64,000 bases of DNA from a virus: positions 1 through 64,000 of IMG/VR virus record IMGVR_UViG_3300020474_000005. One strand, 5' to 3'. How positions within the stretch are numbered: position 1 is the first letter of the stretch; every line of letters starts with the position of its first letter. Position numbers and translations under genes: made by a program. This document shows, piece by piece, positions 35,485 through 57,735 of the stretch. The notes beneath the pieces are model-generated. The model saw only the letters and a list, made by a program, of their open reading frames with translations, searched no databases and was not told the origin of the DNA.

Positions 35485-35805
35485 ATGGCATCAGGAAGAA
35501 TAGGAAAAGCAAATCTTACTGCCGCTACCAATACCACTGTGTATACGACACCTGCTTCAACTTTCACGGTTGCATCAGTATCGTTTTGTAACAGAGGTAA
35601 TCAAGCCATTAGTGTCAGATTAGCGGTGGCGGATAGTGCAACTCCAGATAACGCAGAATTTGTTGAATTTGAAACAGAAATTCTGTCTCATGGGGTGTTA
35701 GAAAGAACAGGTTTGGTACTGAGTGCAACACAGAAATTGGTTGCATACTCTAGTGCGGCTAACGTAAGTGTGGTAGTTACTGGTATAGAAACAAGTACTG
35801 CTTAA
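35485..35805 (+). CDS. Small beta-sandwich virion adaptor
   Basis: TVYTTPA...SVSFCNR...LERTGLVL...VVTGIE. Confidence 0.65.
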   Translation: MASGRIGKANLTAATNTTVYTTPASTFTVASVSFCNRGNQAISVRLAVADSATPDNAEFVEFETEILSHGVLERTGLVLSATQKLVAYSSAANVSVVVTGIETSTA

Positions 35806-35852
35806 TTTTGTGTAGAATAACATAAATAGTATAAACGAAGGAAACAAAAAAA

Positions 35853-36185
35853 ATGGGAAGATACATATCAACAACTGGAACTGCTGGAGTATCCACTAAA
35901 ATAGTGAGTACAACACACCAAGCGGCGGTAAATGAGAGAATCTTAGCAAACAGTTCTTCAGGAACGTTTACAATAACGTTACCTACGAACACTAGTTTAT
36001 TGACAAATGATACAATTCAAATCATCGACGCAAACTCTAGTTTCGGAACTAACGCGGTAACTGTTGCAAGAAATTCATCTTTAATTCAAGGAGCGGCAGA
36101 CGATTTGACTCTTGACTTAAATGGTGCAATAGTAACTTTAATTTACACAGGTTCGACTTATGGTTGGATCGTAGGTGCTGTATAA
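35853..36185 (+). CDS. Tail-fibre connector domain (T4 gp34 proximal-fibre-like repeat unit)
   Basis: SSSGTFTITLP...D.IQIID..SSFGTN.VTVARN...I.G..DDLTLD...TLIY....GW. Confidence 0.65.
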   Translation: MGRYISTTGTAGVSTKIVSTTHQAAVNERILANSSSGTFTITLPTNTSLLTNDTIQIIDANSSFGTNAVTVARNSSLIQGAADDLTLDLNGAIVTLIYTGSTYGWIVGAV

Positions 36186-36233: not shown

Positions 36234-37196
36234 ATGGCAAGTTTAAAATCATTACTCGGTACAAAGCAAGATGCATTCGTATCGGTTGCGGAATCTAACC
36301 TAGAAAAAGGTCAGATTTTTACATACCATAACGGTGCAAACTACTCTAGAATATGGTGCGGATTTTGTTTCCATCCAAGCGTATCTGGAACAGCAGTAGT
36401 AGAGGCGTGGGGAGCAGGTGGCTCTGGCGCTGAGATGTGTTGTTGCGGTTTTGGTCTTCCAGGTAACTCAGGTGCCTATGTTAAGAAAACAGTTGTGATG
36501 TCAGTCGGCGACTACATTTGTGGTTGTACTGGTATATCTTGCGGAAATTCATCAGATTTATGTTTTAGAGGTTGTTCAGAACCTACCATGTTAAGATTTT
36601 GCATAGGTGGCGCAGAGACTTGCGTGTGTGCAGAAGGTGGTAGAGGTGGAATAACTTATTGTTCAACTAATAACAGTTTTTATTGTTGCTACAGAGCAAA
36701 TGGTTTCTGTGTAACAAAAACAGACAATAACCAATGTGGAATTATTTGTAACCAATGTAACGGTGCATGGGTAGCCTGTGCATACGGTGGTGAAACAAAT
36801 AAACCAGGATTAAATTCTTGTGTATCAGCATTTGGTTGTTATCCATCATGTATTTGTATGTTTAATCACCACATTCCAACTCCAGCGGGACAAGGTTCCA
36901 AAGAGGGAAGGATGATTGTATATACAAATGACAACAGTAACGATTTTGCACAATGGTCAGGTCAAGGTCATCACCAACACAGAGCAAATTTAGGATCAGG
37001 TAGATTTCCAACAGGCGGTATACCTTGGTCATCTTGTTGGGGTTTCAGTGGTGCTTGTGGTTGTTATGAAAACGACGGTTGTGTTCCAGTGCTTCCAGTA
37101 GGAACTGGTGGTAGAGGACCTAACCCTTGTCCAGGTGTTAGAGATCACGCAATCAGAGGTGGCTTTGGAGCAGTAAGGATTAGATTTATTAGTTAA
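36234..37196 (+). CDS. Cys/Gly-rich fibre-tip-like protein 1
   Basis: About 30 Cys in 320 aa (hand count); EAWGAGGSG.EMCCCG...VRDH..RGGFGAVRIRF. Confidence 0.7.
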   Translation: MASLKSLLGTKQDAFVSVAESNLEKGQIFTYHNGANYSRIWCGFCFHPSVSGTAVVEAWGAGGSGAEMCCCGFGLPGNSGAYVKKTVVMSVGDYICGCTGISCGNSSDLCFRGCSEPTMLRFCIGGAETCVCAEGGRGGITYCSTNNSFYCCYRANGFCVTKTDNNQCGIICNQCNGAWVACAYGGETNKPGLNSCVSAFGCYPSCICMFNHHIPTPAGQGSKEGRMIVYTNDNSNDFAQWSGQGHHQHRANLGSGRFPTGGIPWSSCWGFSGACGCYENDGCVPVLPVGTGGRGPNPCPGVRDHAIRGGFGAVRIRFIS

Positions 37197-37205
37197 GGAT
37201 TTATT

Positions 37206-38219
37206 ATGGCAAGTTTAACAACATTATTACAAACCAAATATGATTTTGCAGTAGGTAACGAGACTAACCTAGAGCAAGGAAGAATTTATCAGTACTATCC
37301 AGGCAGTGCTAGAGGTACAAACTTTAGATGTCACGTATGTTGGGTAGCACCATCGGCTGGTACAGCAACTATTGAGATATGGGGTGCTGGTGGATCAGGT
37401 GCAGAGATGTGCTGTTGTGGATTTGGTATTAACGGAAATCCAGGAGCATACAGTAAAAAAGTTTTAACAATGGCATCAGGCTGTTTCATTTGTGGAATAG
37501 TTGGTCAGTCATGTGGTAACGCAGATGACCTATGTCACAGAGGTACTTCAGAGTCAACACAAATTTGTTGGTTTGCAGGCGGTGCCGACGGTTGTATGTG
37601 TGCCCAAGGTGGTAAGGGTGGTTACTCTTACTGTTCAACAGGTAACTCAGGTTACTGTTGTTTTGTAGCAGGTGCTTTCTGTAACACACAAGGCGGAGAT
37701 TCATACTGCGGAATTATTTGTAACTTTAAAGATTCATCAAGTGAACCAACTTTCTGTGCCCAAGCATATGGCGGAGATAATAACTGCTACGGCGGATTCA
37801 GTTGTTTCTATTTTAGAGGATGTCAACCAAACTGTAACTGTAGACAAGTTCCAGTTCTTAGATTCCCACCAGGACAGATATCTACAAAAGGTGGTGAAGT
37901 ACACTACACATTAGATTCTGACAATGGAAGATCACAATGGTCAGGAATGGGTGGTTGGATGAATGCCTCACACGGATTTAACCTTGCAACAAGATCACCA
38001 ACACAGGGTGGTCCATACACTGCTTGTTGGACAGGTAACAGAAGTTGCGGTTGTTATCAAGCAAATGGTTGTATACCTTTCATGCCAGCAGGAATTGGTG
38101 GACAAGGTCCAAGACCATGTGATGGTGTAAGAGATCACGCACACAGAGGTGGTCATGGTATGATTAGAATTAAATTTGTAAGTACTACTAGTGATTACGA
38201 TCTAGATAGTGCACCGTAA
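37206..38219 (+). CDS. Cys/Gly-rich fibre-tip-like protein 2
   Basis: About 29 Cys in 337 aa; same skeleton EIWGAGGSGAEMCCCG...VRDHAHRGGHGMIRIKF. Confidence 0.7.
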   Translation: MASLTTLLQTKYDFAVGNETNLEQGRIYQYYPGSARGTNFRCHVCWVAPSAGTATIEIWGAGGSGAEMCCCGFGINGNPGAYSKKVLTMASGCFICGIVGQSCGNADDLCHRGTSESTQICWFAGGADGCMCAQGGKGGYSYCSTGNSGYCCFVAGAFCNTQGGDSYCGIICNFKDSSSEPTFCAQAYGGDNNCYGGFSCFYFRGCQPNCNCRQVPVLRFPPGQISTKGGEVHYTLDSDNGRSQWSGMGGWMNASHGFNLATRSPTQGGPYTACWTGNRSCGCYQANGCIPFMPAGIGGQGPRPCDGVRDHAHRGGHGMIRIKFVSTTSDYDLDSAP

Positions 38220-38241
38220 GGATAAGGAGTAAATATAGTAT

Positions 38242-39219
38242 ATGGCTAGTTTAAAAGGATTATTAACTAATAGAAACCCAGCAGAGATGGTTGAGGAAAA
38301 CCTAGAGACTGGATATATCTACGTATGGACTCCAGGTACTAACTACACTAACTTTTGTAATGGTGTATGTTGGACGGCTCCAGCGGCTGGTAAGGCTCAC
38401 ATAGAAATATGGGGAGCAGGCGGTTCAGGTGCTAGAATGTGTTGTTGTGGTGACGGATTACCAGGCAACGCAGGTGGATATTCTTATAGAGAAATTACTG
38501 TAGAAGCAAACGACACACTAACAGGATGTACAGGTATGCCTTGTCAGGCTCACCCATTATGTCACTCAGGATGTTCTAACCCAACAGGTATTTGTTGGAT
38601 AACAGCATCTAACGGAAATGGCTGTATGTGTGCAAGAGGTGGTTACGGTGGAAAATCAATGTGTACAACAGGAAGTTCTTTATACTGTTGTTACAGAGCA
38701 CAAGGATTCTGCACTGTAAGATGTAACAATGATAACTGTGGACTAGTTTGTAACGTATGTACAGACGGTAGTACAGATTCATGGCAGTCGTGTGCTTATG
38801 GTGGAACAATTAACTGTTGCGGACAATTCGGTTGTGTATCATTCTTTGGATGTTGCCCACACTGTAAATGTAGATTCCAGCAACACGTTCCGATTCCAGC
38901 AGGACAATTTGCTGTTAACGGTGCGTTGATTACTTTCCAGAAAGAGTCGGATGGAACTCCGATGTCTAACTGGTCAGGTAACCAAATATTCCAATACTAT
39001 GCGGCTTTGAACTCAGCATCTAAAACGCCAAGACAAGGAACTCCAGACTCACACTGTTGGAGATCAGATAGAGCGTGTGGATGTTATGAAATGCAAGGAT
39101 GTAACAACTATCTACCAGTGGGTGGTGGCGGAATTGGCCCTAACCCATGTCCTGATGTAAGAGATCACGGAATCAGAGGTGGATTCGGAGGAGTAAGAAT
39201 CAGATTTGTTGCTTCATAA
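38242..39219 (+). CDS. Cys/Gly-rich fibre-tip-like protein 3
   Basis: About 33 Cys in 325 aa; EIWGAGGSGARMCCCG...VRDHGIRGGFGGVRIRF. Confidence 0.7.
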   Translation: MASLKGLLTNRNPAEMVEENLETGYIYVWTPGTNYTNFCNGVCWTAPAAGKAHIEIWGAGGSGARMCCCGDGLPGNAGGYSYREITVEANDTLTGCTGMPCQAHPLCHSGCSNPTGICWITASNGNGCMCARGGYGGKSMCTTGSSLYCCYRAQGFCTVRCNNDNCGLVCNVCTDGSTDSWQSCAYGGTINCCGQFGCVSFFGCCPHCKCRFQQHVPIPAGQFAVNGALITFQKESDGTPMSNWSGNQIFQYYAALNSASKTPRQGTPDSHCWRSDRACGCYEMQGCNNYLPVGGGGIGPNPCPDVRDHGIRGGFGGVRIRFVAS

Positions 39220-39261: not shown

Positions 39262-39906
39262 ATGTTTACAAAAGAATTTAGTATAGCAATGCCAAATGAA
39301 CCACTAAAGAACGACTTTAGTGACAACACAACTATCACAGGAACTTACAAAGGTCCAAGATACATTAAAATCGAGTACAACAACGAATCTAAAGTTGTTG
39401 GTAACTGGATTGATGAAGGTGACACAGAGGCAGAATTTGCAGGTAACCCAGTAGCAGAAGGTTATACATCAACAACTTTAGACGCAGATGTTGATACAAA
39501 ATGGGTTGCATACATAACAGGTTTTTATTCAACAGGTGACGTTGCTGACTACGAAGAAGACTTAGGCACAACAGATGGTAACGGTGACGCAGAAAAATTT
39601 ACTTTTTACTGGCACGATGGTTCAGGTGTACTTGCACAGATTTACAATCAAGGCACAATGAAATTTGAAGACGGTGCTATCACAGAACCTTCAGTAAGAG
39701 TTCACACAGTATCAGAAGCAGATTTCACAGAATCAGTAAACAGCCATATTGCTAACGCAACAACAGAAGCGGCAAGAGATGTTTACTCAGATGATGAAAA
39801 AACGGCTATCAATGCTTACAAATCTACACTAGAAGGTTTAAGCACAAAATACAGTGGTAAAGATCACTGGAAAATTCCTTTCCCACAACAACCAGACTAC
39901 AAATAA
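39262..39906 (+). CDS. Putative tail-fibre assembly chaperone (paralogue of 40361)
   Basis: C-terminus Y...L......Y...DHWKIPFPQQP resembles fibre-chaperone ends; follows the Cys-rich trio. Confidence 0.5.
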   Translation: MFTKEFSIAMPNEPLKNDFSDNTTITGTYKGPRYIKIEYNNESKVVGNWIDEGDTEAEFAGNPVAEGYTSTTLDADVDTKWVAYITGFYSTGDVADYEEDLGTTDGNGDAEKFTFYWHDGSGVLAQIYNQGTMKFEDGAITEPSVRVHTVSEADFTESVNSHIANATTEAARDVYSDDEKTAINAYKSTLEGLSTKYSGKDHWKIPFPQQPDYK

Positions 39907-39915
39907 TAATTTGCC

Positions 39916-40302
39916 ATGGCAACTGTAACAAGAGTAAACGGATCAGGTCTTTCAACAGCAGGAAACGTTTTTTACCCAGGTGCATTTGCATTTAAAATTT
40001 TAGTAAAAATTGCAAACGGTACAGCAGTTGATTTAAGAGCAGAAGATGATGCCCTTGACGAAACAGTAGAAGCAATTTGCAAAGAAATTAATCCTTTAGT
40101 TTATTGTACTACAGACGACAACAGTGGGACAATGACTGTTGTATGTGATAACAGTGCAACAGCGGCGGACTTACAAGCACGTATTAGACTAATTGGTAGA
40201 GCGGAAAACTATCCAACAAGCACAGTTACAGCAGTTGGACCAAATACTATTGATACAAGCGGTACATTAGTAACTCTCGCGGCAACATTAACAGCAACGT
40301 AA
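39916..40302 (+). CDS. Small virion protein, hypothetical
   Basis: MATVTRVNG start; Ala/Thr-rich; AADLQARIR. Confidence 0.55.
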   Translation: MATVTRVNGSGLSTAGNVFYPGAFAFKILVKIANGTAVDLRAEDDALDETVEAICKEINPLVYCTTDDNSGTMTVVCDNSATAADLQARIRLIGRAENYPTSTVTAVGPNTIDTSGTLVTLAATLTAT

Positions 40303-40360
40303 TCCAAAAAACACCAATCATTTTTAAAAGCAAGGTTTCGTTCACAAAATAAGTACGAGT

Positions 40361-41089
40361 ATGCCTTACAAAAAGATTGAAGTAGATGAAGCAGACAAAT
40401 ACTCACAAGATGATTTGAATCATCTCACATTTATCAACAATAAAATCCCATTCGACGTCACACTACCAAATCAACCATACGTAGACGATTTCAGCGAAGG
40501 TGTAACTCACCCTTGTTTTTACACAGGACTGAATTTCATGAGAGTCAATAGACGTATCAAGGATGGATTGATATTGGAAGTTCTAGTAGAAGCAATGAGC
40601 CTGGAAGAAATAGAATCTAGAAAGATTATTCACGACGAGGGTTGCGACAGTTTTATAATTGATGCGAGAGAATATCCATGGGAAGCGGCTTTTATCAGTG
40701 GTAGATACTATCATGAAGATGTTCCAAACTATGTAGAGGAAATAGGCACAACAGATTTCTGGGGCAAACCAGAAGTTTGGGAGTATGTGCATTCACCTGA
40801 AACAGGATTAATGGCACAAATTTATTATGTGGGATCAATGCATTACAACGACGGCAAATATAGCACACCAAAATTTAGAGCACACATAATCGAACGCGAA
40901 TCATTTGATATGAACGTACAGGTACACATCAAAGACTGTGTTAGAGAAGCAAAAAGAGATGTTTACAACACGGAAGAAAGAGATTATATTATTAAGTATG
41001 GTGAATGGTTAAAAACAGTGCCTCAAACATACAAAAATATCAAGCATTGGAAGATATTATTCCCTCAACTTCCCGAGTTTAAACCCTAA
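40361..41089 (+). CDS. Putative tail-fibre assembly chaperone (paralogue of 39262)
   Basis: Shares PN.P...DFS, GTTD, AQIY, EA.RDVY and HWKI.FPQ.P with 39262. Confidence 0.5.
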   Translation: MPYKKIEVDEADKYSQDDLNHLTFINNKIPFDVTLPNQPYVDDFSEGVTHPCFYTGLNFMRVNRRIKDGLILEVLVEAMSLEEIESRKIIHDEGCDSFIIDAREYPWEAAFISGRYYHEDVPNYVEEIGTTDFWGKPEVWEYVHSPETGLMAQIYYVGSMHYNDGKYSTPKFRAHIIERESFDMNVQVHIKDCVREAKRDVYNTEERDYIIKYGEWLKTVPQTYKNIKHWKILFPQLPEFKP

Positions 41090-41134: not shown

Positions 41135-42085
41135 ATGAGCAATTCGAAAAGACCTAAGGCTTTTTTTCTAAATGGCGGAATGGGAAGAATAATATCTGCG
41201 ATTCCTGCCTTGGAAAAATATTATGAATCAAAGGAAGATCCTGATTTTATTATTGTGATTGAAGGTATTTGTAATATCCTAAATGGACATCCAACATTGG
41301 ATAATAAAACTTATGATATGTATCATAAAAATTTATTCCACACAAAATTAATTAACATGGACATAGTAAGTCCTGAACCTTACAGACTGAATGAATATTT
41401 CAATCAGAAATGTGACATCGCCCAAGCATTTGATATACTGATTAACAAAAAAGGAGTAAGAAAATTGCCTGCTCCAACGTTAATATTAAGTAAAGAAGAA
41501 CTTTTAGAAGGAAGAAAAGCAGTAGATGAAATAAAAGAAAAAGTTAAGAAAGAAAAATTAGTCATCATACAACCTTTTGGACGTGCTATTACACAAATAG
41601 ATAATTCTTTCATAGACAAAAGCAATAGAAGTATAGAATTCACAAATTTAAAAAAAATTATTAAAAAATTACAAGAAAAAGATTGGGCAGTATGCGTAAT
41701 GGCTGAGTTCGGAATAGAATTTAAAGACGCAGGATTTAAAGATGAGGTTGCTATTCCTGAAATAGCAGATTTACGTAACTGGGCAGGTTTAATAAAGTAT
41801 GCAGATCACTTTTTAGGATGTGATAGTGTAGGTCAACATCTTGCAAAAGCAATGGAAACTCCAGCAAGTGTTGTTATGGGAGCAACGTATCCGATAAACA
41901 CTTCATATCCAGACGATAAAAGTTTTAAAATTATTGATATGGGACAATTTGATAGAGAATATGACCCTATAAGAATAAGTTTCGATGAAAGGATCAGTAG
42001 AAAGCATGAAAGAATTATGTCAATGACTCCTGAAATAGAAGATTATGTAGTGTCTGCTGTTAACGGAGATCCAATAGAGGAATAA
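41135..42085 (+). CDS. GT9/heptosyltransferase-like (GT-B) protein A
   Basis: N-terminal GGMGRIISAIPAL; IIQPFG; C-terminal ADHFLGCDSVGQHLAKA (GT9 DSxxxHxA donor-binding motif). Confidence 0.65.
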   Translation: MSNSKRPKAFFLNGGMGRIISAIPALEKYYESKEDPDFIIVIEGICNILNGHPTLDNKTYDMYHKNLFHTKLINMDIVSPEPYRLNEYFNQKCDIAQAFDILINKKGVRKLPAPTLILSKEELLEGRKAVDEIKEKVKKEKLVIIQPFGRAITQIDNSFIDKSNRSIEFTNLKKIIKKLQEKDWAVCVMAEFGIEFKDAGFKDEVAIPEIADLRNWAGLIKYADHFLGCDSVGQHLAKAMETPASVVMGATYPINTSYPDDKSFKIIDMGQFDREYDPIRISFDERISRKHERIMSMTPEIEDYVVSAVNGDPIEE

Positions 42086-42086
42086 C

Positions 42087-43919
42087 ATGAGTGATGATTT
42101 AAACAAATACAACAAAACAGGATACATAGCCGCAGTGGCAAGAGGTCACAACGCAGGTGTATGTTTACTGAAAGACGGCAAAATAGTATTTTCAATAGAA
42201 GAAGAAAGACTATCAAGAAGAAAATATGATGGTGGTCCTTATGCTTCCATGTTTGAAATATTAAAATACACGGACAAGATTGATTACCTAATAATTGCAC
42301 ATACACAATCATTGAAAGATCCATCTACTGGCAGAGTAGATTATTCAGGAGATGATGTATACACAGGTATTGCTAGAAAGTTAGGATTAATAGATCCATA
42401 CATTCATAAGATAGAACATCCACAAGTTATTGACTTATCACATATACACCACAAACTTCATGCCGCGTGTGCATTTTATAGATCAGGTTTTGACAAAGCA
42501 GTTGCAGTGATTGTTGACGGTGCAGGAACTTTTATACCTATTAAGAATAGTGTAGCAGGTGACATGACTGTATTTGAAGTTGAAAGTATATTCAGTTGTG
42601 ATTATCCTAATGATATCTTTGCACTGTACAAACATTATGCAACAGGCACAGCAAGTCCAGGAGGTTACTATCCTGAAATGGATTCGGAAAGTATTAGTGA
42701 ACCAGGAAAAACACATGAAGCATTATTCACAGACAAAGCAGGCATAACAAAAACATATGAAGCAATAACTCAGTATTGTGGATTCAGTGCCATTGAGGCA
42801 GGAAAGACTATGGGATTGTTTCCTTATGGAAAGAAAAATGATGTAATACCACCACTGTTTCAAAAAGAAGGAAAATTTGAATTATCAAATAGAAACTTTA
42901 TCATACCAACTTACCCAAATGCGGCGCAGGTAAACAGTCAAATATATCCTTTTGTGGATGCTAATCCTGATTCTGATAAAGGCGAAGATTGGACAAAAAT
43001 GCAAAACAGAAGAGACATGGCTTACGCAGTACAAAAAGAAACACAGAAACAATGTTTAGATTTAATTTACAAAGCAGTTGAGATGAGTGGATGTAAAAAT
43101 GTTGTGTTTTCTGGAGGATACGGATTAAATTGTGTGGCAAATTATTATTATCTTGAAAGTTTACAAAAAGACGGTATTAAGTTATATGCTGAACCAGTTT
43201 CAAATGATGCGGGAACGGCAATGGGTGCGGCTATGTTGTTCTATTACAGCCTTACACAAACAAAAGAAAAGAAAGTTGATGCACCAACTTTGTACTTAGG
43301 TCCAAAAAGAGAATACACACAAGAGCAAATAAGCGGAATATGTCAAAGACCAGGTGTTGTTTTAGAAGATTGTGACGATTCTAAAGTTGTAGAACTTTTA
43401 GTTAATAAAAATATTGTATCAATATTCCAAGGGCAAAGTGAAAATGGTCCTAGGGCATTAGGTAATAGAAGTATTTTGTTTGATCCAAGATTCAAAGACG
43501 GTAAAGATTATGTAAACAGAGTGAAAAACCGTGAATACTTTAGACCATTTGCTGGAACAATACTTCATGATTACGTGCATGATTGGTTTGATCTACGTGG
43601 AATGGAAGAAACTCCACATATGATGTATGCTGTAAACTGTCAACCAGGTATAGAAGAGAAGATTCCAAGTATAATTCACGTGGACGGTACTTGCAGAATA
43701 CAATCTGTGAAACGTGAACAGAATCCTTTGTATTATGACCTAATAAAAGAGTTCCATAAACAAACAGAATGTCCTATAATTTTCAATACATCATTTAATT
43801 TAGGTGGTGAACCATTAGTTGAGACATTAGAAGACGCAGTAAGAACATTACAACACAGCGAAATAGAATATCTATATTTGCCAGAGTACAAAAAGATAGT
43901 AAAGGTTTTAAATGGCTAG
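42087..43919 (+). CDS. Carbamoyltransferase, NodU/CmcH/TobZ family
   Basis: EEERLSRRK, HHKLHA..AFY.SGF, VDGAG, GKTMGL.PYG, SGGYGLNCVAN, DAGTAMGAA, GPRALGNRSIL, KNREYFRPFA, HVDGTCRIQ, NTSFN. Confidence 0.93.
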   Translation: MSDDLNKYNKTGYIAAVARGHNAGVCLLKDGKIVFSIEEERLSRRKYDGGPYASMFEILKYTDKIDYLIIAHTQSLKDPSTGRVDYSGDDVYTGIARKLGLIDPYIHKIEHPQVIDLSHIHHKLHAACAFYRSGFDKAVAVIVDGAGTFIPIKNSVAGDMTVFEVESIFSCDYPNDIFALYKHYATGTASPGGYYPEMDSESISEPGKTHEALFTDKAGITKTYEAITQYCGFSAIEAGKTMGLFPYGKKNDVIPPLFQKEGKFELSNRNFIIPTYPNAAQVNSQIYPFVDANPDSDKGEDWTKMQNRRDMAYAVQKETQKQCLDLIYKAVEMSGCKNVVFSGGYGLNCVANYYYLESLQKDGIKLYAEPVSNDAGTAMGAAMLFYYSLTQTKEKKVDAPTLYLGPKREYTQEQISGICQRPGVVLEDCDDSKVVELLVNKNIVSIFQGQSENGPRALGNRSILFDPRFKDGKDYVNRVKNREYFRPFAGTILHDYVHDWFDLRGMEETPHMMYAVNCQPGIEEKIPSIIHVDGTCRIQSVKREQNPLYYDLIKEFHKQTECPIIFNTSFNLGGEPLVETLEDAVRTLQHSEIEYLYLPEYKKIVKVLNG

Positions 43920-44892
43920 AAAAACAGCAATATTTGTAAACGGTGGTGCAGGTAGAAGCATAAGTTCAATACCAGCAATAGAAAAATACATAGAAGAGAA
44001 CGCAGATCTAGATCCAATTATCATTTGCGAAGGTGGTACAGATGCATACAAAGGTCATCCTAAACTACATTATAGAGCATATGACAATTGGCACAAAAAT
44101 TTATTCCAAGATTTATTAAAAGATAGAGATTTATTATCGCCTGAACCATATAGAGTATGGGAATATTACAATCAAAAATGTAGTTTAGGTCAAGCATATG
44201 ATATAGCAATAAATGATAAAGGAATTAGAGATTTGCCAAGAGCAAATTTAAAATTAAGCAAGGAAGAAATATTATTAGCACGAAAAATGATTGCGGAAGT
44301 CAAAGAAAAAACAGGAAAAGATAAGATTGTTGTATTCCAACCTTTCGGCAGAGGCGCACAGCCAGAAAAACTTGATGAAAAACAAAAAGAAAAACAACCT
44401 GACATAATAGACTCTACAGGAAGAAGTGTAGAACTACAAAATGTTTGGAATATTGTACGTAAATTAAGCAAAGATTATGGTGTAATGGTAATGAGTGAAT
44501 TTCCATTAGACTTTGGAAAGCACATACCCAATAAACCAGTGGCATTGCCTATGGGAACACACATTAGAGTATGGATGGGTATTATTCAACAAGCGGATCA
44601 TTTTGTTGGTTGCGATTCAGTGGGTCAACATATTGCTCATTCATATAATAAATCAGCAACTGTGATAATAGGCTCTACGTATCCTATTAATACTACTTTT
44701 CCAGATGATGAAAAATTCAATGTAATTGATTTAGGTAAAGATGAACGTGTGTACAGTCCAATAAGAGTCACTTCAGATGAGTTTTCAGACAGACTTAATG
44801 AAGGTATTATGGCTATGGATGAGGAAGTAGAAACACGTATTATTAAATCTGTACAAAGGCTTATCAAACACGGCAAAAACGCCCGTAAATAA
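43912..44892 (+). CDS. GT9/heptosyltransferase-like (GT-B) protein B
   Basis: Paralogue of 41135: GGAGRSISSIPAI, SPEPYR..EY.NQKC, FQPFGRG, ADHFVGCDSVGQHIA. Confidence 0.65.
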   Translation: MARKTAIFVNGGAGRSISSIPAIEKYIEENADLDPIIICEGGTDAYKGHPKLHYRAYDNWHKNLFQDLLKDRDLLSPEPYRVWEYYNQKCSLGQAYDIAINDKGIRDLPRANLKLSKEEILLARKMIAEVKEKTGKDKIVVFQPFGRGAQPEKLDEKQKEKQPDIIDSTGRSVELQNVWNIVRKLSKDYGVMVMSEFPLDFGKHIPNKPVALPMGTHIRVWMGIIQQADHFVGCDSVGQHIAHSYNKSATVIIGSTYPINTTFPDDEKFNVIDLGKDERVYSPIRVTSDEFSDRLNEGIMAMDEEVETRIIKSVQRLIKHGKNARK

Positions 44893-44959: not shown

Positions 44960-45394
44960 ATGTTTGATGTATCAAGATTTTTTGGCAAGGGTGATAAAAA
45001 CACGCTTCTTTTGAAGAATGGTTTAAATTTTTCACACAATGGGCCATATGGAGTTGTAGAGGACGGTCTAGTATTAGACAAGTTCCATGTGAATACGTTT
45101 TCATCGGCTGAATATGCCATACAAGTTGACTACGATACTAACAACAAAGAACTTATTAAAATGTTAGTAACAGCAAGTCCCAATCAATCAGCACTTACAA
45201 TATATGCTAGAACAAATTTAGGAAACAATCTAATAACAATAGACAGCACAGTAGACAATTCATTGTGTAAAATAACAGTAAGTCCTACGGATAAAACTCA
45301 AACAGAGAAATATTCAGGATCTAAAATAATATTCAGTGCCACTTATTTTGCAACGCAAAATGCATTAGTGGGAGGAAGTCAGGTAACAAGTTAA
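44960..45394 (+). CDS. Small baseplate/fibre structural domain protein
   Basis: Beta-rich motif LDKF....FSSAEY.IQV......E...MLV; late promoter upstream. Confidence 0.55.
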   Translation: MFDVSRFFGKGDKNTLLLKNGLNFSHNGPYGVVEDGLVLDKFHVNTFSSAEYAIQVDYDTNNKELIKMLVTASPNQSALTIYARTNLGNNLITIDSTVDNSLCKITVSPTDKTQTEKYSGSKIIFSATYFATQNALVGGSQVTS

Positions 45395-54270: not shown

Positions 54271-54660
54271 TTATTTTTCTTCAGTAACGGTAGTTTGTTG
54301 ATTATCGCCTTTAATTATGCGATAATTGTCATTGGGATCATCAGCAGTACTAACTTCAGTAATACTTCCATTGTCAGTAAGACATTGTACTTGATGAGGT
54401 AGGAACGGCGGATTACGCCATGTGTCGCCTTCATTTAATTCTTTGGTATATAATGTTGCATCTTTGGTATCTATCCAACTTAATAAAAATTTACCGTTGT
54501 TTATAAACCATGATTCATCTTTTACAGCGTGATAGTGCATTGAAAATTTTGCACCTTTTCTATTGAAAACCATTATTTTTCCACAATATAAATCATTGGA
54601 AGCAAAGATTAATTCATATCCCCAACCTTTGTCTATTTTTCCTTCTTTATTAATTGACAT
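54271..54660 (-). CDS. Cupin (sugar isomerase-like)
   Basis: KGWGYE, YCGK, FSMHYHAVKDESW, P...PHQ, EVST.D...DNYRI. Confidence 0.75.
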   Translation of the reverse strand: MSINKEGKIDKGWGYELIFASNDLYCGKIMVFNRKGAKFSMHYHAVKDESWFINNGKFLLSWIDTKDATLYTKELNEGDTWRNPPFLPHQVQCLTDNGSITEVSTADDPNDNYRIIKGDNQQTTVTEEK

Positions 54661-55468
54661 TTAAGAATTCCTCCACTGTTCTAAATTTGTGTTCTATATT
54701 TTTATTTAATTCTGTTAAATCTGCACTGGTGTAGGTCTGATATTGACCTTGTAATTTTGCAGGCATGGGTATTGTTTCTATTTGTGCGTCATATTTTTTG
54801 GCAACAAGTTCTGCAACTTTTTGAAAAGATATTGGTGCTCCTGTGCCAACATTGAATATACCAGAAACATCAGCATTAAGCATTTTTCCATGTACCTCAC
54901 AGACATCATCTACACTAACAAAATCACGTAGATACTTGTCACTGTTTTCAAACAATTTTATTTTGCCAGTCTTTGCTTGATTGGCAAATTTAGTTACAGG
55001 AGATGCTTGATCGCCTTTCTTTTCTTCGTTGTGTCCATACACATTAAAATATCTAAATCCTTGTACAAGCACTTTAAATTCTCCCATTACAGAATTAACA
55101 AATCTATCAAATAGGTATTTGCTCCAAGCATAAGCATTTAATGGATACACGTCACCATCTTCCTTGAAATTTCCTGTGTTCCCATACACACTTGCGGAAC
55201 TGGCATACTGAAAATTTGTACCCATGTTGTCGCACATTTCCAAAAGTTTCATGCTGTATTCTAAATTCGTTTTCATGATTTTATCAACGTCTCTTTCAGT
55301 TGTGCTTGTGATTGCTCCTAGATGTATGATCCAATCATACAAAGACGGATCCGGAAAATGATTATAATCTTCCCATCTAAAGCCGATGACTTCATGCCCT
55401 TGTTTTGTAAGATGCATTCCTAAATGATCTCCGATAAATCCTTTGTAACCTGTTAAGCAAATTTTCAT
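54650..55468 (-). CDS. hldD: ADP-L-glycero-D-manno-heptose 6-epimerase
   Basis: TGYKGFIG, HLGAITSTTE, YASSASVYG, PLNAYAWSK, GFRYFNVYG.NE..KG..AS, RDFVSVDDV, GIFNVGTG, YQTYTSAD. Confidence 0.88.
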   Translation of the reverse strand: MKICLTGYKGFIGDHLGMHLTKQGHEVIGFRWEDYNHFPDPSLYDWIIHLGAITSTTERDVDKIMKTNLEYSMKLLEMCDNMGTNFQYASSASVYGNTGNFKEDGDVYPLNAYAWSKYLFDRFVNSVMGEFKVLVQGFRYFNVYGHNEEKKGDQASPVTKFANQAKTGKIKLFENSDKYLRDFVSVDDVCEVHGKMLNADVSGIFNVGTGAPISFQKVAELVAKKYDAQIETIPMPAKLQGQYQTYTSADLTELNKNIEHKFRTVEEFLNVN

Positions 55469-56070
55469 TTAACATTCTCCCACAATTTTATAATTTTATC
55501 AGCGCCTTCTGGTCTTATGTCTTTAGTAAGTTCATCGTGCCAGTTGGTCAAGTAGTTCATGTTTATGTTAATCCTGCTTCTTTTATCTGTACAAGTCGTG
55601 CCTGTGTGTTCCATGTAACTTGGAAATACCACCATTGAATTTTCTACACTAGGAACTTTTGTGCCATCTTTAAATTCAGTGTAACCATCTGTTGTGTTTA
55701 CATAATAAATTGCGGTGTAACTTAATGCCACTCTTGTATCTGCATGGAATCCATGCTTAATAATTTTTTCTGTTCTTGGTATGTTGTTTGCTTTTACTCT
55801 AATAAAAGTATTTGCTTTCAATACATTAAAGATTGGATAAAGCATTACCCAATTACTGTGTTCAGTGGTCACATCGGAAACTCCATGAAAGTTGTGTTGA
55901 AACTGTAATTGTTCTTTTTCCTCAGTCATTTTTTGTGCATCTTCAACAACGTGTTCCGAGTAATACCAAGGAAAATGATCACTTAACATTTTGTCCGTAA
56001 GTATCTTAAATTCTTCTTTTTGAATTACATTGGTGCAAATTAATTTGCCTTTTTCAATTCTTGTTTCCAT
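55465..56070 (-). CDS. 2OG-Fe(II) oxygenase
   Basis: GFHAD, TAIYYVNTTDGYTEF, VENSMVVF....EH, terminal R.NIN.NY. Confidence 0.75.
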   Translation of the reverse strand: METRIEKGKLICTNVIQKEEFKILTDKMLSDHFPWYYSEHVVEDAQKMTEEKEQLQFQHNFHGVSDVTTEHSNWVMLYPIFNVLKANTFIRVKANNIPRTEKIIKHGFHADTRVALSYTAIYYVNTTDGYTEFKDGTKVPSVENSMVVFPSYMEHTGTTCTDKRSRININMNYLTNWHDELTKDIRPEGADKIIKLWENVK

Positions 56071-57307
56071 TAACCTTGTCCACTATGTTTGATGTTGAAA
56101 AACCTTCTACTGTTGGAAATATTATCACTTCGGCAAGGTCATTTCCGACCACTGTGTCGAACGTGTAATCTCCACCTTTTACAATCACGTTTGGTGTATG
56201 TTCTTTTAATGCATCTATGGGAGTATCTTGTTCAAATACAACCACTTGGTCCACCCAGGGCAGTTGTAATAGTTGTTGTTCTCTTGCCCAAGCATTATTG
56301 AATGGTCTATCGTCACCCTTTAATCTTTTTACACTTGCATCAGAATTAATTCCAACAATTAATCTATCTCCTTGCTGTTTCGCAAATTTTAATAATTCTA
56401 AATGTCCTTTATGCAGAATATCAAAAACGCCATTTGTCCATACCACTGTGTCTTCAATATCTGATCTATCTATTATAGATACTCCTCTTTTTTGCACAAT
56501 TTTTTCTGCACCTTTAACTGCTAATTCACAACAAGCAATCATATTGTTGGTTTTAAAATAATGTGCAATTATGGCAAGTACAGAATCACCTGCACCACTT
56601 ACATCTGCAACTTCAACAGTATTGCTTTTAATATGATCATAAGAATCTTTAGTGACTACGTGTATACCGTTCGCTCCATCAGTTACAACAAGCCATGTCC
56701 ATACATTATCTTCACACATTTTTTTAGCAGTTTCAATATTAAAATTACCAAACCATGCTTCATATTCTTTCATATTTGGTTTGACTAAAAATGCACCAAC
56801 GTATCTACTAAATCCTTGTTTTGGATCCACATATACATTCTTACATTTTTCTAAAATTTTCGTTATTGTATCTTTTTTGATTACTCCTTTGTTGTAATCA
56901 CTTACAATTACCACATCGGTTTCATTTAAATTTTCAAGCAGTATTTCAACAGGAGTATCTGCCTTATATTTCTCCTCCTTGTCCACACGAATAAGGTGTT
57001 GTCCGTTCTGTCCTATGATTCTAGTTTTGGTAGTTGTCATTTCACCATCTTGGCACAGATGCGACTTTACTCCATTTTGCAGTAAAATTTCTTGGATTTT
57101 GTGTCCGGGGATGTCGTTGCCCACGGCACCATAAAGCCACGTGTCTGTGCCCAAGTTTGATAGGTTTAACGCTAGGTTTCCAGCGCCTCCAACATTGAAA
57201 TCTTTGTTTGTTTCTTTAACTACAAGCACCGGTGCTTCTGGACTCACTTTTTGGCAATCGCCCTGTGTCCACATATCAAGCATTACATCACCGATGATTT
57301 TAATCAT
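56054..57307 (-). CDS. hldE: Bifunctional heptose-7-phosphate kinase / heptose-1-phosphate nucleotidyltransferase
   Basis: IGDVMLD, SPEAPV, GGAGNLA.NL, SDYNKG, VDPK, KPN..E, DVSGAGDS; then TNGVFDILHKGH, GINSDASVKRLKG..RP, KGGDY, GFSTS. Confidence 0.92.
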   Translation of the reverse strand: MIKIIGDVMLDMWTQGDCQKVSPEAPVLVVKETNKDFNVGGAGNLALNLSNLGTDTWLYGAVGNDIPGHKIQEILLQNGVKSHLCQDGEMTTTKTRIIGQNGQHLIRVDKEEKYKADTPVEILLENLNETDVVIVSDYNKGVIKKDTITKILEKCKNVYVDPKQGFSRYVGAFLVKPNMKEYEAWFGNFNIETAKKMCEDNVWTWLVVTDGANGIHVVTKDSYDHIKSNTVEVADVSGAGDSVLAIIAHYFKTNNMIACCELAVKGAEKIVQKRGVSIIDRSDIEDTVVWTNGVFDILHKGHLELLKFAKQQGDRLIVGINSDASVKRLKGDDRPFNNAWAREQQLLQLPWVDQVVVFEQDTPIDALKEHTPNVIVKGGDYTFDTVVGNDLAEVIIFPTVEGFSTSNIVDKVNGNKN

Positions 57308-57735
57308 TACATTAATTTTAACATTTTGAACACAGTATCTAATTTGACCTGGTTCATTTTATTTTGAAGAGTCTTACGTAAACCTTGGTGTAATGGCTTG
57401 GGCCAATTACCAAAACTTACCCACGCATATCCATCGTGTTCTGTGTTTAATTTTGGAATAAATTCTTTCTCTACAACACACAAGAAAGTGTGATATAAAA
57501 AATTTTCATCATTGCTTATAAAAGTTTCCATAGGTATTTTCTTTTTTATTTCTACTTCACCTACTTCCTCTTTAATCTCTCTATGTAGTCCTTCCCATAA
57601 ATTTTCATCTACGGTTGTGCCACCTACTAATCCCCATACGTGATTTTGTTTGCTCTGCACTCTATGAAGTACTAAAAACCTTTGGGTATCCAAAGTATAG
57701 AAGAGTGCACCGCACCCTATAATTTTACTGCTCAT
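57307..57735 (-). CDS. Nudix hydrolase
   Basis: Nudix box WGLVGG....E....GLHREIKEEVG; LNTEHDGYAW. Confidence 0.85.
   Translation of the reverse strand: MSSKIIGCGALFYTLDTQRFLVLHRVQSKQNHVWGLVGGTTVDENLWEGLHREIKEEVGEVEIKKKIPMETFISNDENFLYHTFLCVVEKEFIPKLNTEHDGYAWVSFGNWPKPLHQGLRKTLQNKMNQVKLDTVFKMLKLM

Follow-up and report, generated by a model that had tools for sequence, protein, structure and literature searches.

The region considered here occupies positions 41135-44892 of a 64,000-nucleotide (nt) stretch of viral DNA (the window; positions 1 to 64,000 of IMG/VR record IMGVR_UViG_3300020474_000005) and encodes two divergent glycosyltransferase-like proteins on either side of a carbamoyltransferase. 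The whole record, 76 kb long, has a CheckV completeness of 22%, and the DNA comes from a T4-like marine myovirus of which the window covers a part. Its nearest cultured relatives are Kyanoviridae cyanophages, at ~50% protein identity; megablast of the region against phage records gave no matches. The region is filled by three tightly packed genes, all on the + strand. P0001 (41135..42085, +, 316 amino acids, aa) and P0003 (43912..44892, +, 326 aa) are copies A and B of a protein with the fold of glycosyltransferase family 9 (GT9) and are 47% identical to each other. Between them lies P0002 (42087..43919, +, 610 aa), an O-carbamoyltransferase of the TobZ/NodU/GdmN type. It starts 1 nt past the P0001 stop, and its own stop overlaps the ATG start of P0003 by 8 nt, within ATGGCTAG. 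Both GT9-like proteins are matched full length by phrog_8954, a family of unknown function (profile residues 2-314; E 4e-125 for P0001 and 8e-134 for P0003). The motifs of copy A are GGMGR (41174-41188), SPEPY (41369-41383) and CDSVGQH (41819-41839); those of copy B are GGAGR (43942-43956), SPEPY (44137-44151), DSTGRS (44410-44427) and CDSVGQH (44611-44631).

P0001 and P0003 belong to a branch of the GT-B fold that derives from GT9 (the heptosyltransferases) and appears confined to phages. The AlphaFold2 (AF2) model of P0003 (predicted local distance difference test score, pLDDT, 76.5) has a two-domain GT-B fold, and all its top matches are GT-B structures. In VIA-align, GT9 structures as a group scored Z 15.4-20.6 versus 13.4 or less for other GT-B folds, the best individual matches, all GT9 or GT9-like, being 3tov at 20.6, WaaF at 18.1, PnsB1 at 16.8, and TibC and WaaC both at 16.2. 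The best Foldseek matches were also GT9 structures (E 6.7e-9). The N-terminal, acceptor domain of the model is reduced to ~110 residues and three strands. PDB sequence searches with P0003 or with a P0003 alignment returned no glycosyltransferase, and the NCBIfam equivalogs scored 12-24 bits against cut-offs of 170-467. A shallow hhalign comparison (12 versus 3 sequences) aligned the C-terminal motif alone, with a probability of 13%; a profile of 81 family sequences was needed, made up of 79 representatives of 50%-identity clusters and the two window proteins. Set against the four GT9 paralogues of E. coli K-12, WaaC, WaaF, WaaQ and WaaU, this profile aligned over its full length with a probability of 97% and E 7e-11.

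An earlier note on this DNA, made from its letters alone (the sequence-only reading), had proposed that both GT9-like proteins carry Arg where the catalytic Asp is expected. The loop GGMGRIISAIPAL of P0001 (residues 14-26) has Arg18 (nt 41186-41188) and the loop GGAGRSISSIPAI of P0003 (residues 11-23) has Arg15 (nt 43954-43956), each closing a GGxGR motif. The hhalign comparison pairs Arg15 of P0003, equivalent to Arg18 of P0001, with Asp13 of WaaC, and the posterior digit there is the highest possible. The VIA-align ranges concur: residue 3 of the model pairs with residue 1 of WaaC and WaaF. In HepI (WaaC), activity is lost 4688-fold in D13A, 2027-fold in D261A and 926-fold in K192A, and D13 is conserved in all heptosyltransferases (PMC5713226). 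The base of TibC, Asp110, is the equivalent of HepI D13 (PMC4358343). The literature bears out that these positions matter for the function of HepI. On the donor side, Arg171 of P0003 aligns with WaaC Lys192, Asp235 with Asp261 and His240 with His266, the latter two within the CDSVGQH motif, which is intact in both proteins as the note had said. Measured by the residues that mark a GT9 enzyme, therefore, the catalytic Asp is replaced by Arg and the donor-side equivalents of Lys192 and Asp261 are present as Arg171 and Asp235. Glu78, Asp167 and His240 are candidate alternative bases on sequence grounds. Position 10 was considered as a relocated base and rejected; it is Asp in 47 of the 81 members, yet Asn in both window proteins.

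The Arg is present in 113 of 113 close homologues and in all 103 complete open reading frames (ORFs) from 80 viral loci and isolates. Among the 81 aligned sequences it is found in 77, with Lys in two more. Chance would come nowhere near such a recurrence, and the observation is stronger than the earlier note had it, the Arg being characteristic of the family as a whole. Because it is near-invariant down to ~25% identity, the Arg is, by the measure of the alignment, under strong purifying selection. Fourteen residues are invariant in 40 members with identities down to 24% (G11, G12, G14, R15, E78, P79, Y80, G146, D167, R171, S172, D235, H240 and R285), a set that suits a putative conserved ligand site better than a scaffold. 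In a tree rooted on a Vibrio sequence, copies A and B each form a clade (support 0.99), and both clades sit within lineages that have one copy and carry the Arg, which indicates a single duplication once the Arg was already fixed. By this tree, Asp gave way to Arg a single time, in an ancestor shared by the whole of this large phage-only family, and the window copies inherited the Arg through the later duplication. The earlier argument that the same change in two diverged paralogues implies selection is right in that selection is strong, but the two changes are not independent.

The clusters of this family in the Atlas are 100% viral. When prokaryotes were scanned by pattern, each species being represented by one genome, a distant subgroup gave no relatives and close relatives gave only 11 metagenome-bin contigs whose taxonomic labels are incoherent; the family therefore looks phage-restricted. 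One cultured member is gp066 of the Vibrio phage vB_VspP_SBP1 (L007:7935-8732), an N4-like podovirus. This is a shortened protein of ~26% identity, which retains the Arg, Glu78-Pro-Tyr, Arg171-Ser, Asp235 and His240. Its gene lies between tail-fibre and tail-protein genes, with no carbamoyltransferase or heptose genes nearby, and the tie to tail genes therefore spans unrelated phage families. The isolate orthologues in S-CAM3 (L001:11998-13137), P-SSM2 (L002:9992-11104) and S-SSM7 (L006:8989-10236) have C-terminal tails of 50-100 residues, rich in Lys, Pro, Gln and Ser, which look disordered; both window copies are without tails. No longer version of P0003, fused to other domains, came up when one was looked for, which is weak evidence.

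P0002 has both domains of the TobZ/NodU/GdmN/NovN enzymes above threshold: Carbam_trans_C at 7e-58 (195.3 bits, cut-off 27) and Carbam_trans_N at 4e-24 (86.1 bits, cut-off 24). Its PDB sequence matches are the carbamoyltransferase 7xb6 (6e-54), GdmN, NovN and TobZ. It differs from these enzymes in that its lineage is co-inherited with the GT9-like family: of 80 related viral loci, 76 have the GT9-like gene adjoining a carbamoyltransferase gene, and in the remaining four the contig stops short. In nine loci (L050, L053, L063, L067, L068, L071, L074, L076 and L078), the GT9-like/carbamoyltransferase unit is block-inverted relative to the genes upstream of it (p106, p110 and the Cys-rich genes, described below), and both enzymes therefore move as one unit. 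Structure prediction of a P0002-P0003 complex gave no support, a result that bears neither way on binding.

The cassette lies within a tail-fibre module in all 80 loci, and between fibre genes in the Kyanoviridae isolates. The module has a conserved order. A large fibre gene is followed by p106 and p110, then by about three Cys/Gly-rich genes with p214/p242-like genes interleaved, the GT9-like gene, the carbamoyltransferase gene, a p144-type domain and more fibre genes. In the window, p106 and p110 (35485..36185, +) are small tail-fibre-like proteins that open the module; they have PHROG tail fibre/tail protein matches and occur in 60 of the 80 loci. The three tandem Cys/Gly-rich paralogues (36234..39219, +; 320, 337 and 325 aa; phrog_4205) come next. 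Three small proteins, p214, p128 and p242 (39262..41089, +), separate this trio from copy A; two of them, p214 and p242, resemble each other, recur in related loci in tblastn layouts and match phrog_9740, of unknown function. Downstream of the unit is p144 (44960..45394, +), conserved in 71 of 80 loci by tblastn. Elsewhere the p144-type domain is the N-terminal part of a longer, fibre-like protein (564 aa, L027:13719-15413) with repeated Ig-like segments and a C-terminal end resembling a cupredoxin copper site (...CQFHGAMHG...).

Single-copy loci carry an extra ORF between the GT9-like and carbamoyltransferase genes, which seems to occupy the slot of the second GT9 copy in the lineage of the window. 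One such ORF (L027:10987-11817, 276 aa) starts MKRLFVFGCSYT and by eye resembles block I of SGNH/GDSL hydrolases, with Cys for Asp. A metagenomic protein, P0263 (558 aa), consists of a GT8 domain (Pfam 3e-12) fused to a GT9-like domain that keeps IDGGIGR. The GT8 fusion, and the extra ORF if it is SGNH-like, point to the building and tailoring of a glycan.

The three Cys/Gly-rich proteins contain 30, 29 and 33 Cys, in agreement with the ~30 each of the sequence-only reading, and share the motif WGAGGSGAxMCCCG. Twenty-three Cys columns are common to all three paralogues, and nine are at least 85% conserved over 177 sequences, including the CCC triad that follows WGAGGSGA. Such fixed positions are the pattern to be expected of structural disulfides or metal sites. 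The AF2 model has a pLDDT of 63 (moderate confidence). In Foldseek the cyanophage Pam3 fibre ranks first (7ypx, 3.4e-4); next come the ALK/LTK Gly-rich domain, which binds ligand in these human receptors, and tail-tip proteins of mycobacteriophage Bxb1. With this model as the guide, the Cys/Gly-rich proteins are best read as putative fibres or adhesins of the virion. When ORFs were sought by their composition, such proteins turned up next to the GT9-like gene in 61 of the 66 loci whose upstream flank measures 5 kb or more, the rest being truncated on the relevant side. The occurrence in only about one third of loci given by tblastn was dismissed as an artefact of sensitivity in the light of this search.

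A sugar-nucleotide cluster that the sequence-only reading had not used lies at 54271-57735 on the - strand. It is separated from P0003 by 9.4 kb, on the downstream side, and comes directly after a gene for a 2336-aa fibre protein. It is convergent with the fibre operon, has a lower G+C content (~35%) and encodes a cupin, an HldD-like epimerase, a DenV-like protein (phrog_274), an HldE-like kinase/adenylyltransferase and a NUDIX hydrolase. The HldE-like protein (56054..57307, -, 416 aa), a bifunctional heptose-7-phosphate kinase/heptose-1-phosphate adenylyltransferase by resemblance, has Pfam PfkB and CTP_transf_like domains and matches NF008454 (7e-98), TIGR02198 (4e-70) and TIGR02199 (1e-43), all under the equivalog cut-offs. 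The HldD-like protein (54650..55468, -, 271 aa) resembles ADP-glyceromanno-heptose 6-epimerase (Pfam Epimerase 1e-32; TIGR02197 3e-69, 233 bits versus a cut-off of 275). With scores under the cut-offs, the two proteins are therefore relatives, not certified orthologues. The cupin (54271..54660, -; Cupin_1 6e-7; phrog_7851) is called a cysteine dioxygenase in cyanophage records and travels with the heptose genes, having the same neighbours in S-CAM3, P-SSM2 and S-SSM7.

In these three isolates the heptose gene set stands directly beside the GT9-like/carbamoyltransferase pair, and every cultured isolate with a GT9-like gene has a short gene annotated as phosphoheptose isomerase. A 268-kb viral contig has HldE-like and epimerase-like genes ~16 kb from its GT9-like gene. 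GmhB was not found with the sugar-nucleotide cluster of the window. The cupin might take over an isomerase or epimerase step. [quoted passage not shown] Phages of such hosts would therefore bring their own heptose pathway, and the canonical WaaC/WaaF acceptor would be absent from those hosts.

The analysis shows which fold the proteins have, which residues correspond to those of WaaC, how far these are conserved, which genes are linked and that genes of a heptose pathway are present; from this we infer a donor, an acceptor, an order of reactions and a role for the Arg. We give about an even chance to the reading that the cassette serves a heptose and carbamoyl glycan decoration tied to the virion fibres. 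ADP-heptose is the likely donor, since HldE- and HldD-like genes are linked to the family. In this decoration pathway, the GT9-like proteins would bind phage-made ADP-heptose on the conserved C-terminal domain and pass the heptose to an acceptor other than Kdo-lipid A. The acceptor would probably be a product of the tail-fibre module; a fibre or adhesin of the virion, or a glycan borne by such a protein, is the most plausible choice. The translationally coupled carbamoyltransferase would then O-carbamoylate the transferred heptose; a precedent for such a sugar is the 7-O-carbamoyl heptose of the Pseudomonas aeruginosa LPS core (PMC7168646). The Arg would not act as a base. Its place where helix 1 begins, within the Gly-rich GGxGR loop, would give it the classic anion-binding geometry, and it may hold a phosphate or carboxylate of the acceptor or, after domain closure, the phosphate of the departing ADP. 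An anionic phosphate or carboxylate at the acceptor site, named as an alternative in the sequence-only reading, suits the GGxGR loop at least as well as a thiolate does. If a proton has to be abstracted at all, the obvious candidate would be the invariant Glu78, just after strand 3, or the substrate itself might serve; OGT and POFUT1 are examples of inverting GT-B enzymes that work with no base from the protein.

Several points weigh against the fibre-decoration reading. The Pfam GT9 family PF01075 scores P0001 at 20.5 bits and P0003 at 12.3, below the gathering cut-off of 22 and over the C-terminal motif only; in a six-frame search copy A reached 19.9 bits (22.1 after neighbouring pieces were added). 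The ribose-binding Glu of GT-B enzymes is not conserved, position 196 being variable. On the pathway side, no GmhA-type isomerase (PF13580) was found in the 76-kb record, and no heptose genes were detected in two large related contigs (45% and 60% complete). To our knowledge, glycosylation of phage virions is rare and in cyanophages undocumented. The available virion proteomes come from phages without this GT9-like family.

The phage family is like WaaC (HepI) and WaaF (HepII) in its GT-B fold (Z 16-18) and in the full-length profile alignment. The D261-T...H266 of WaaC is kept as D235-S...H240 and K192 as the basic residue R171. It differs from them in the Arg for Asp13, the reduced N-terminal domain, the sub-cut-off Pfam and NCBIfam scores and the phage-only distribution, and the hosts of its relatives lack the Kdo/heptose acceptor. 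If the acceptor is a fibre or adhesin, the closest parallel in function is TibC/AAH, the bacterial autotransporter heptosyltransferases (BAHT), which have a GT9-like fold (Z 16.2) and heptosylate an adhesin in the cytoplasm from ADP-heptose. TibC, however, keeps the base Asp110 (PMC4358343) where the phage family has Arg; it also binds iron through a Cys motif and forms a dodecameric ring. The phage family scores 12.3 bits against the BAHT model TIGR04414 (cut-off 200) and lacks the ~90-residue N-terminal extension of TibC, the alignment starting at TibC residue 93. PnsB1 of the chloroplast NDH complex demonstrates that a GT9-like fold (Z 16.8) can persist in a non-enzymatic role. It is a structural subunit of plants, whereas the phage family keeps the cleft residues and is accompanied by heptose genes and a carbamoyltransferase. 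The MetaGPA carbamoyltransferase that acts on 5-hydroxymethylcytosine (5hmC) is also phage-encoded and belongs to the same superfamily as P0002, but its clade is found with thymidylate-synthase-like and deaminase genes (PMC8670742) and P0002 with fibre, GT9-like and heptose genes.

The sequence-only reading had favoured a thiolate acceptor: the Arg would lower the pKa of, or stabilize, a Cys thiolate, and the three Cys-rich neighbours would be S-glycosylated. An Arg at the base position, the near-constant proximity of the trio to the enzyme and the invariant CCC triad are all compatible with this, and a thiolate nucleophile needs no general base. The Cys columns shared by the paralogues nevertheless look structural, lying as they do in a fibre/Gly-rich-like fold, and fixed Cys in a virion protein facing seawater suggest disulfides or metal sites. 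The neighbours of the Arg-bearing Vibrio member, judged by annotation, are ordinary tail genes and small hypotheticals. The known protein S-glycosyltransferases SunS, ThuS and GccA are GT2 enzymes of the GT-A fold that act on small bacteriocin peptides with UDP-hexoses; they would share with the phage family, a GT-B protein by its model, the proposed Cys acceptor only, and neither fold nor sequence is common to the two. The plant S-glucosyltransferase UGT74B1 retains its catalytic His, and loss of the Asp is no pointer to a thiol because some inverting GT-B enzymes do without a protein base. S-glycosylation is very improbable, the least probable of the readings considered. Scarcely more probable is its broader form, in which Arg replaced the general base because the Cys/Gly-rich fibre proteins would supply a nucleophile that is anionic from the outset, whether a Cys thiolate or a phosphate; the S-linked or phospho-linked carbamoyl-heptose then carried by the virions would be a protein modification so far undescribed. 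Another thought in the sequence-only reading was that the two proteins are non-catalytic partners of the carbamoyltransferase. In a fuller version of this reading they would have lost activity and become a scaffold or chaperone for that enzyme or for fibre assembly, like PnsB1. The missing catalytic Asp, the rank of PnsB1 among the best structural matches, the translational coupling to the carbamoyltransferase and the shortened Vibrio homologue are in line with such a role. A scaffold would not be expected to keep, down to 24% identity, invariant polar residues that line the expected cleft on both domains and include the counterparts of HepI K192 and D261, and the heptose-pathway genes that accompany the family also speak against this role. 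We regard this role as improbable.

Modification of the host envelope deserves more weight than these, but is still unlikely. Heptose, later carbamoylated, would be transferred to a host glycolipid, polysaccharide or lipid-linked precursor bearing a phosphate or carboxylate, and the GGxGR loop would bind the anion. The Gly-rich loop of MurG, proposed to hold the diphosphate of lipid I, offers an analogy, and a Gly-rich loop with Arg at a helix N-terminus would be a typical anion-binding motif. The characterized close structural relatives all act on LPS, TibC excepted, and the cyanophage genes have long been named LPS genes (PMC3037559). A Vibrio phage member without its own heptose pathway would also fit a host that makes ADP-heptose. 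On the other hand, the cassette is in the tail-fibre module in every locus and is co-inherited with fibre-like proteins, and cyanobacterial LPS has no heptose/Kdo inner core (PMC4515613). A lytic phage would probably gain little from remodelling the envelope, with the genes placed among structural, presumably late, genes. Hypermodification of DNA is a further alternative, in which the carbamoyltransferase would act on 5-hydroxymethyl-pyrimidines and the GT-B proteins would bind or glycosylate DNA, the Arg loop contacting a backbone phosphate. The T4 DNA glucosyltransferases are GT-B enzymes, and P-SSM2 has a thymidylate synthase gene ~8 kb downstream. A phage TobZ-like carbamoyltransferase does turn 5hmC into 5-carbamoyloxymethylcytosine in DNA, but the carbamoyltransferases of the clade that acts on DNA are accompanied by deaminases and homologues of thymidylate synthase, and it is on unmodified contigs that carbamoyltransferases adjoin glycosyltransferases (PMC8670742). 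A ThyA-like gene was not found in three large related contigs, and the neighbours of the cassette are fibre genes and a heptose pathway, not genes of nucleotide metabolism. A role in DNA modification is accordingly given only a small probability.

So-called LPS genes have puzzled readers of the genomes of large marine cyanophages from the earliest ones onwards, and in 2010 it was still open whether these were functional or filler (PMC3037559). The present analysis joins three elements, a pathway to heptose, a carbamoyltransferase and a family of divergent heptosyltransferase-like proteins, into a cassette with a fixed place in the tail-fibre module. That a whole family has Arg for Asp, where the catalytic role is best established in GT9, would point to a GT-B transferase with a different mechanism or a different type of acceptor. 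If the fibre-decoration reading is true, these phages would sugar-coat part of their host-recognition apparatus, which can be tested in the cultured carriers S-CAM3, S-CAM1, S-SSM7, P-SSM2 and P-SSM5.

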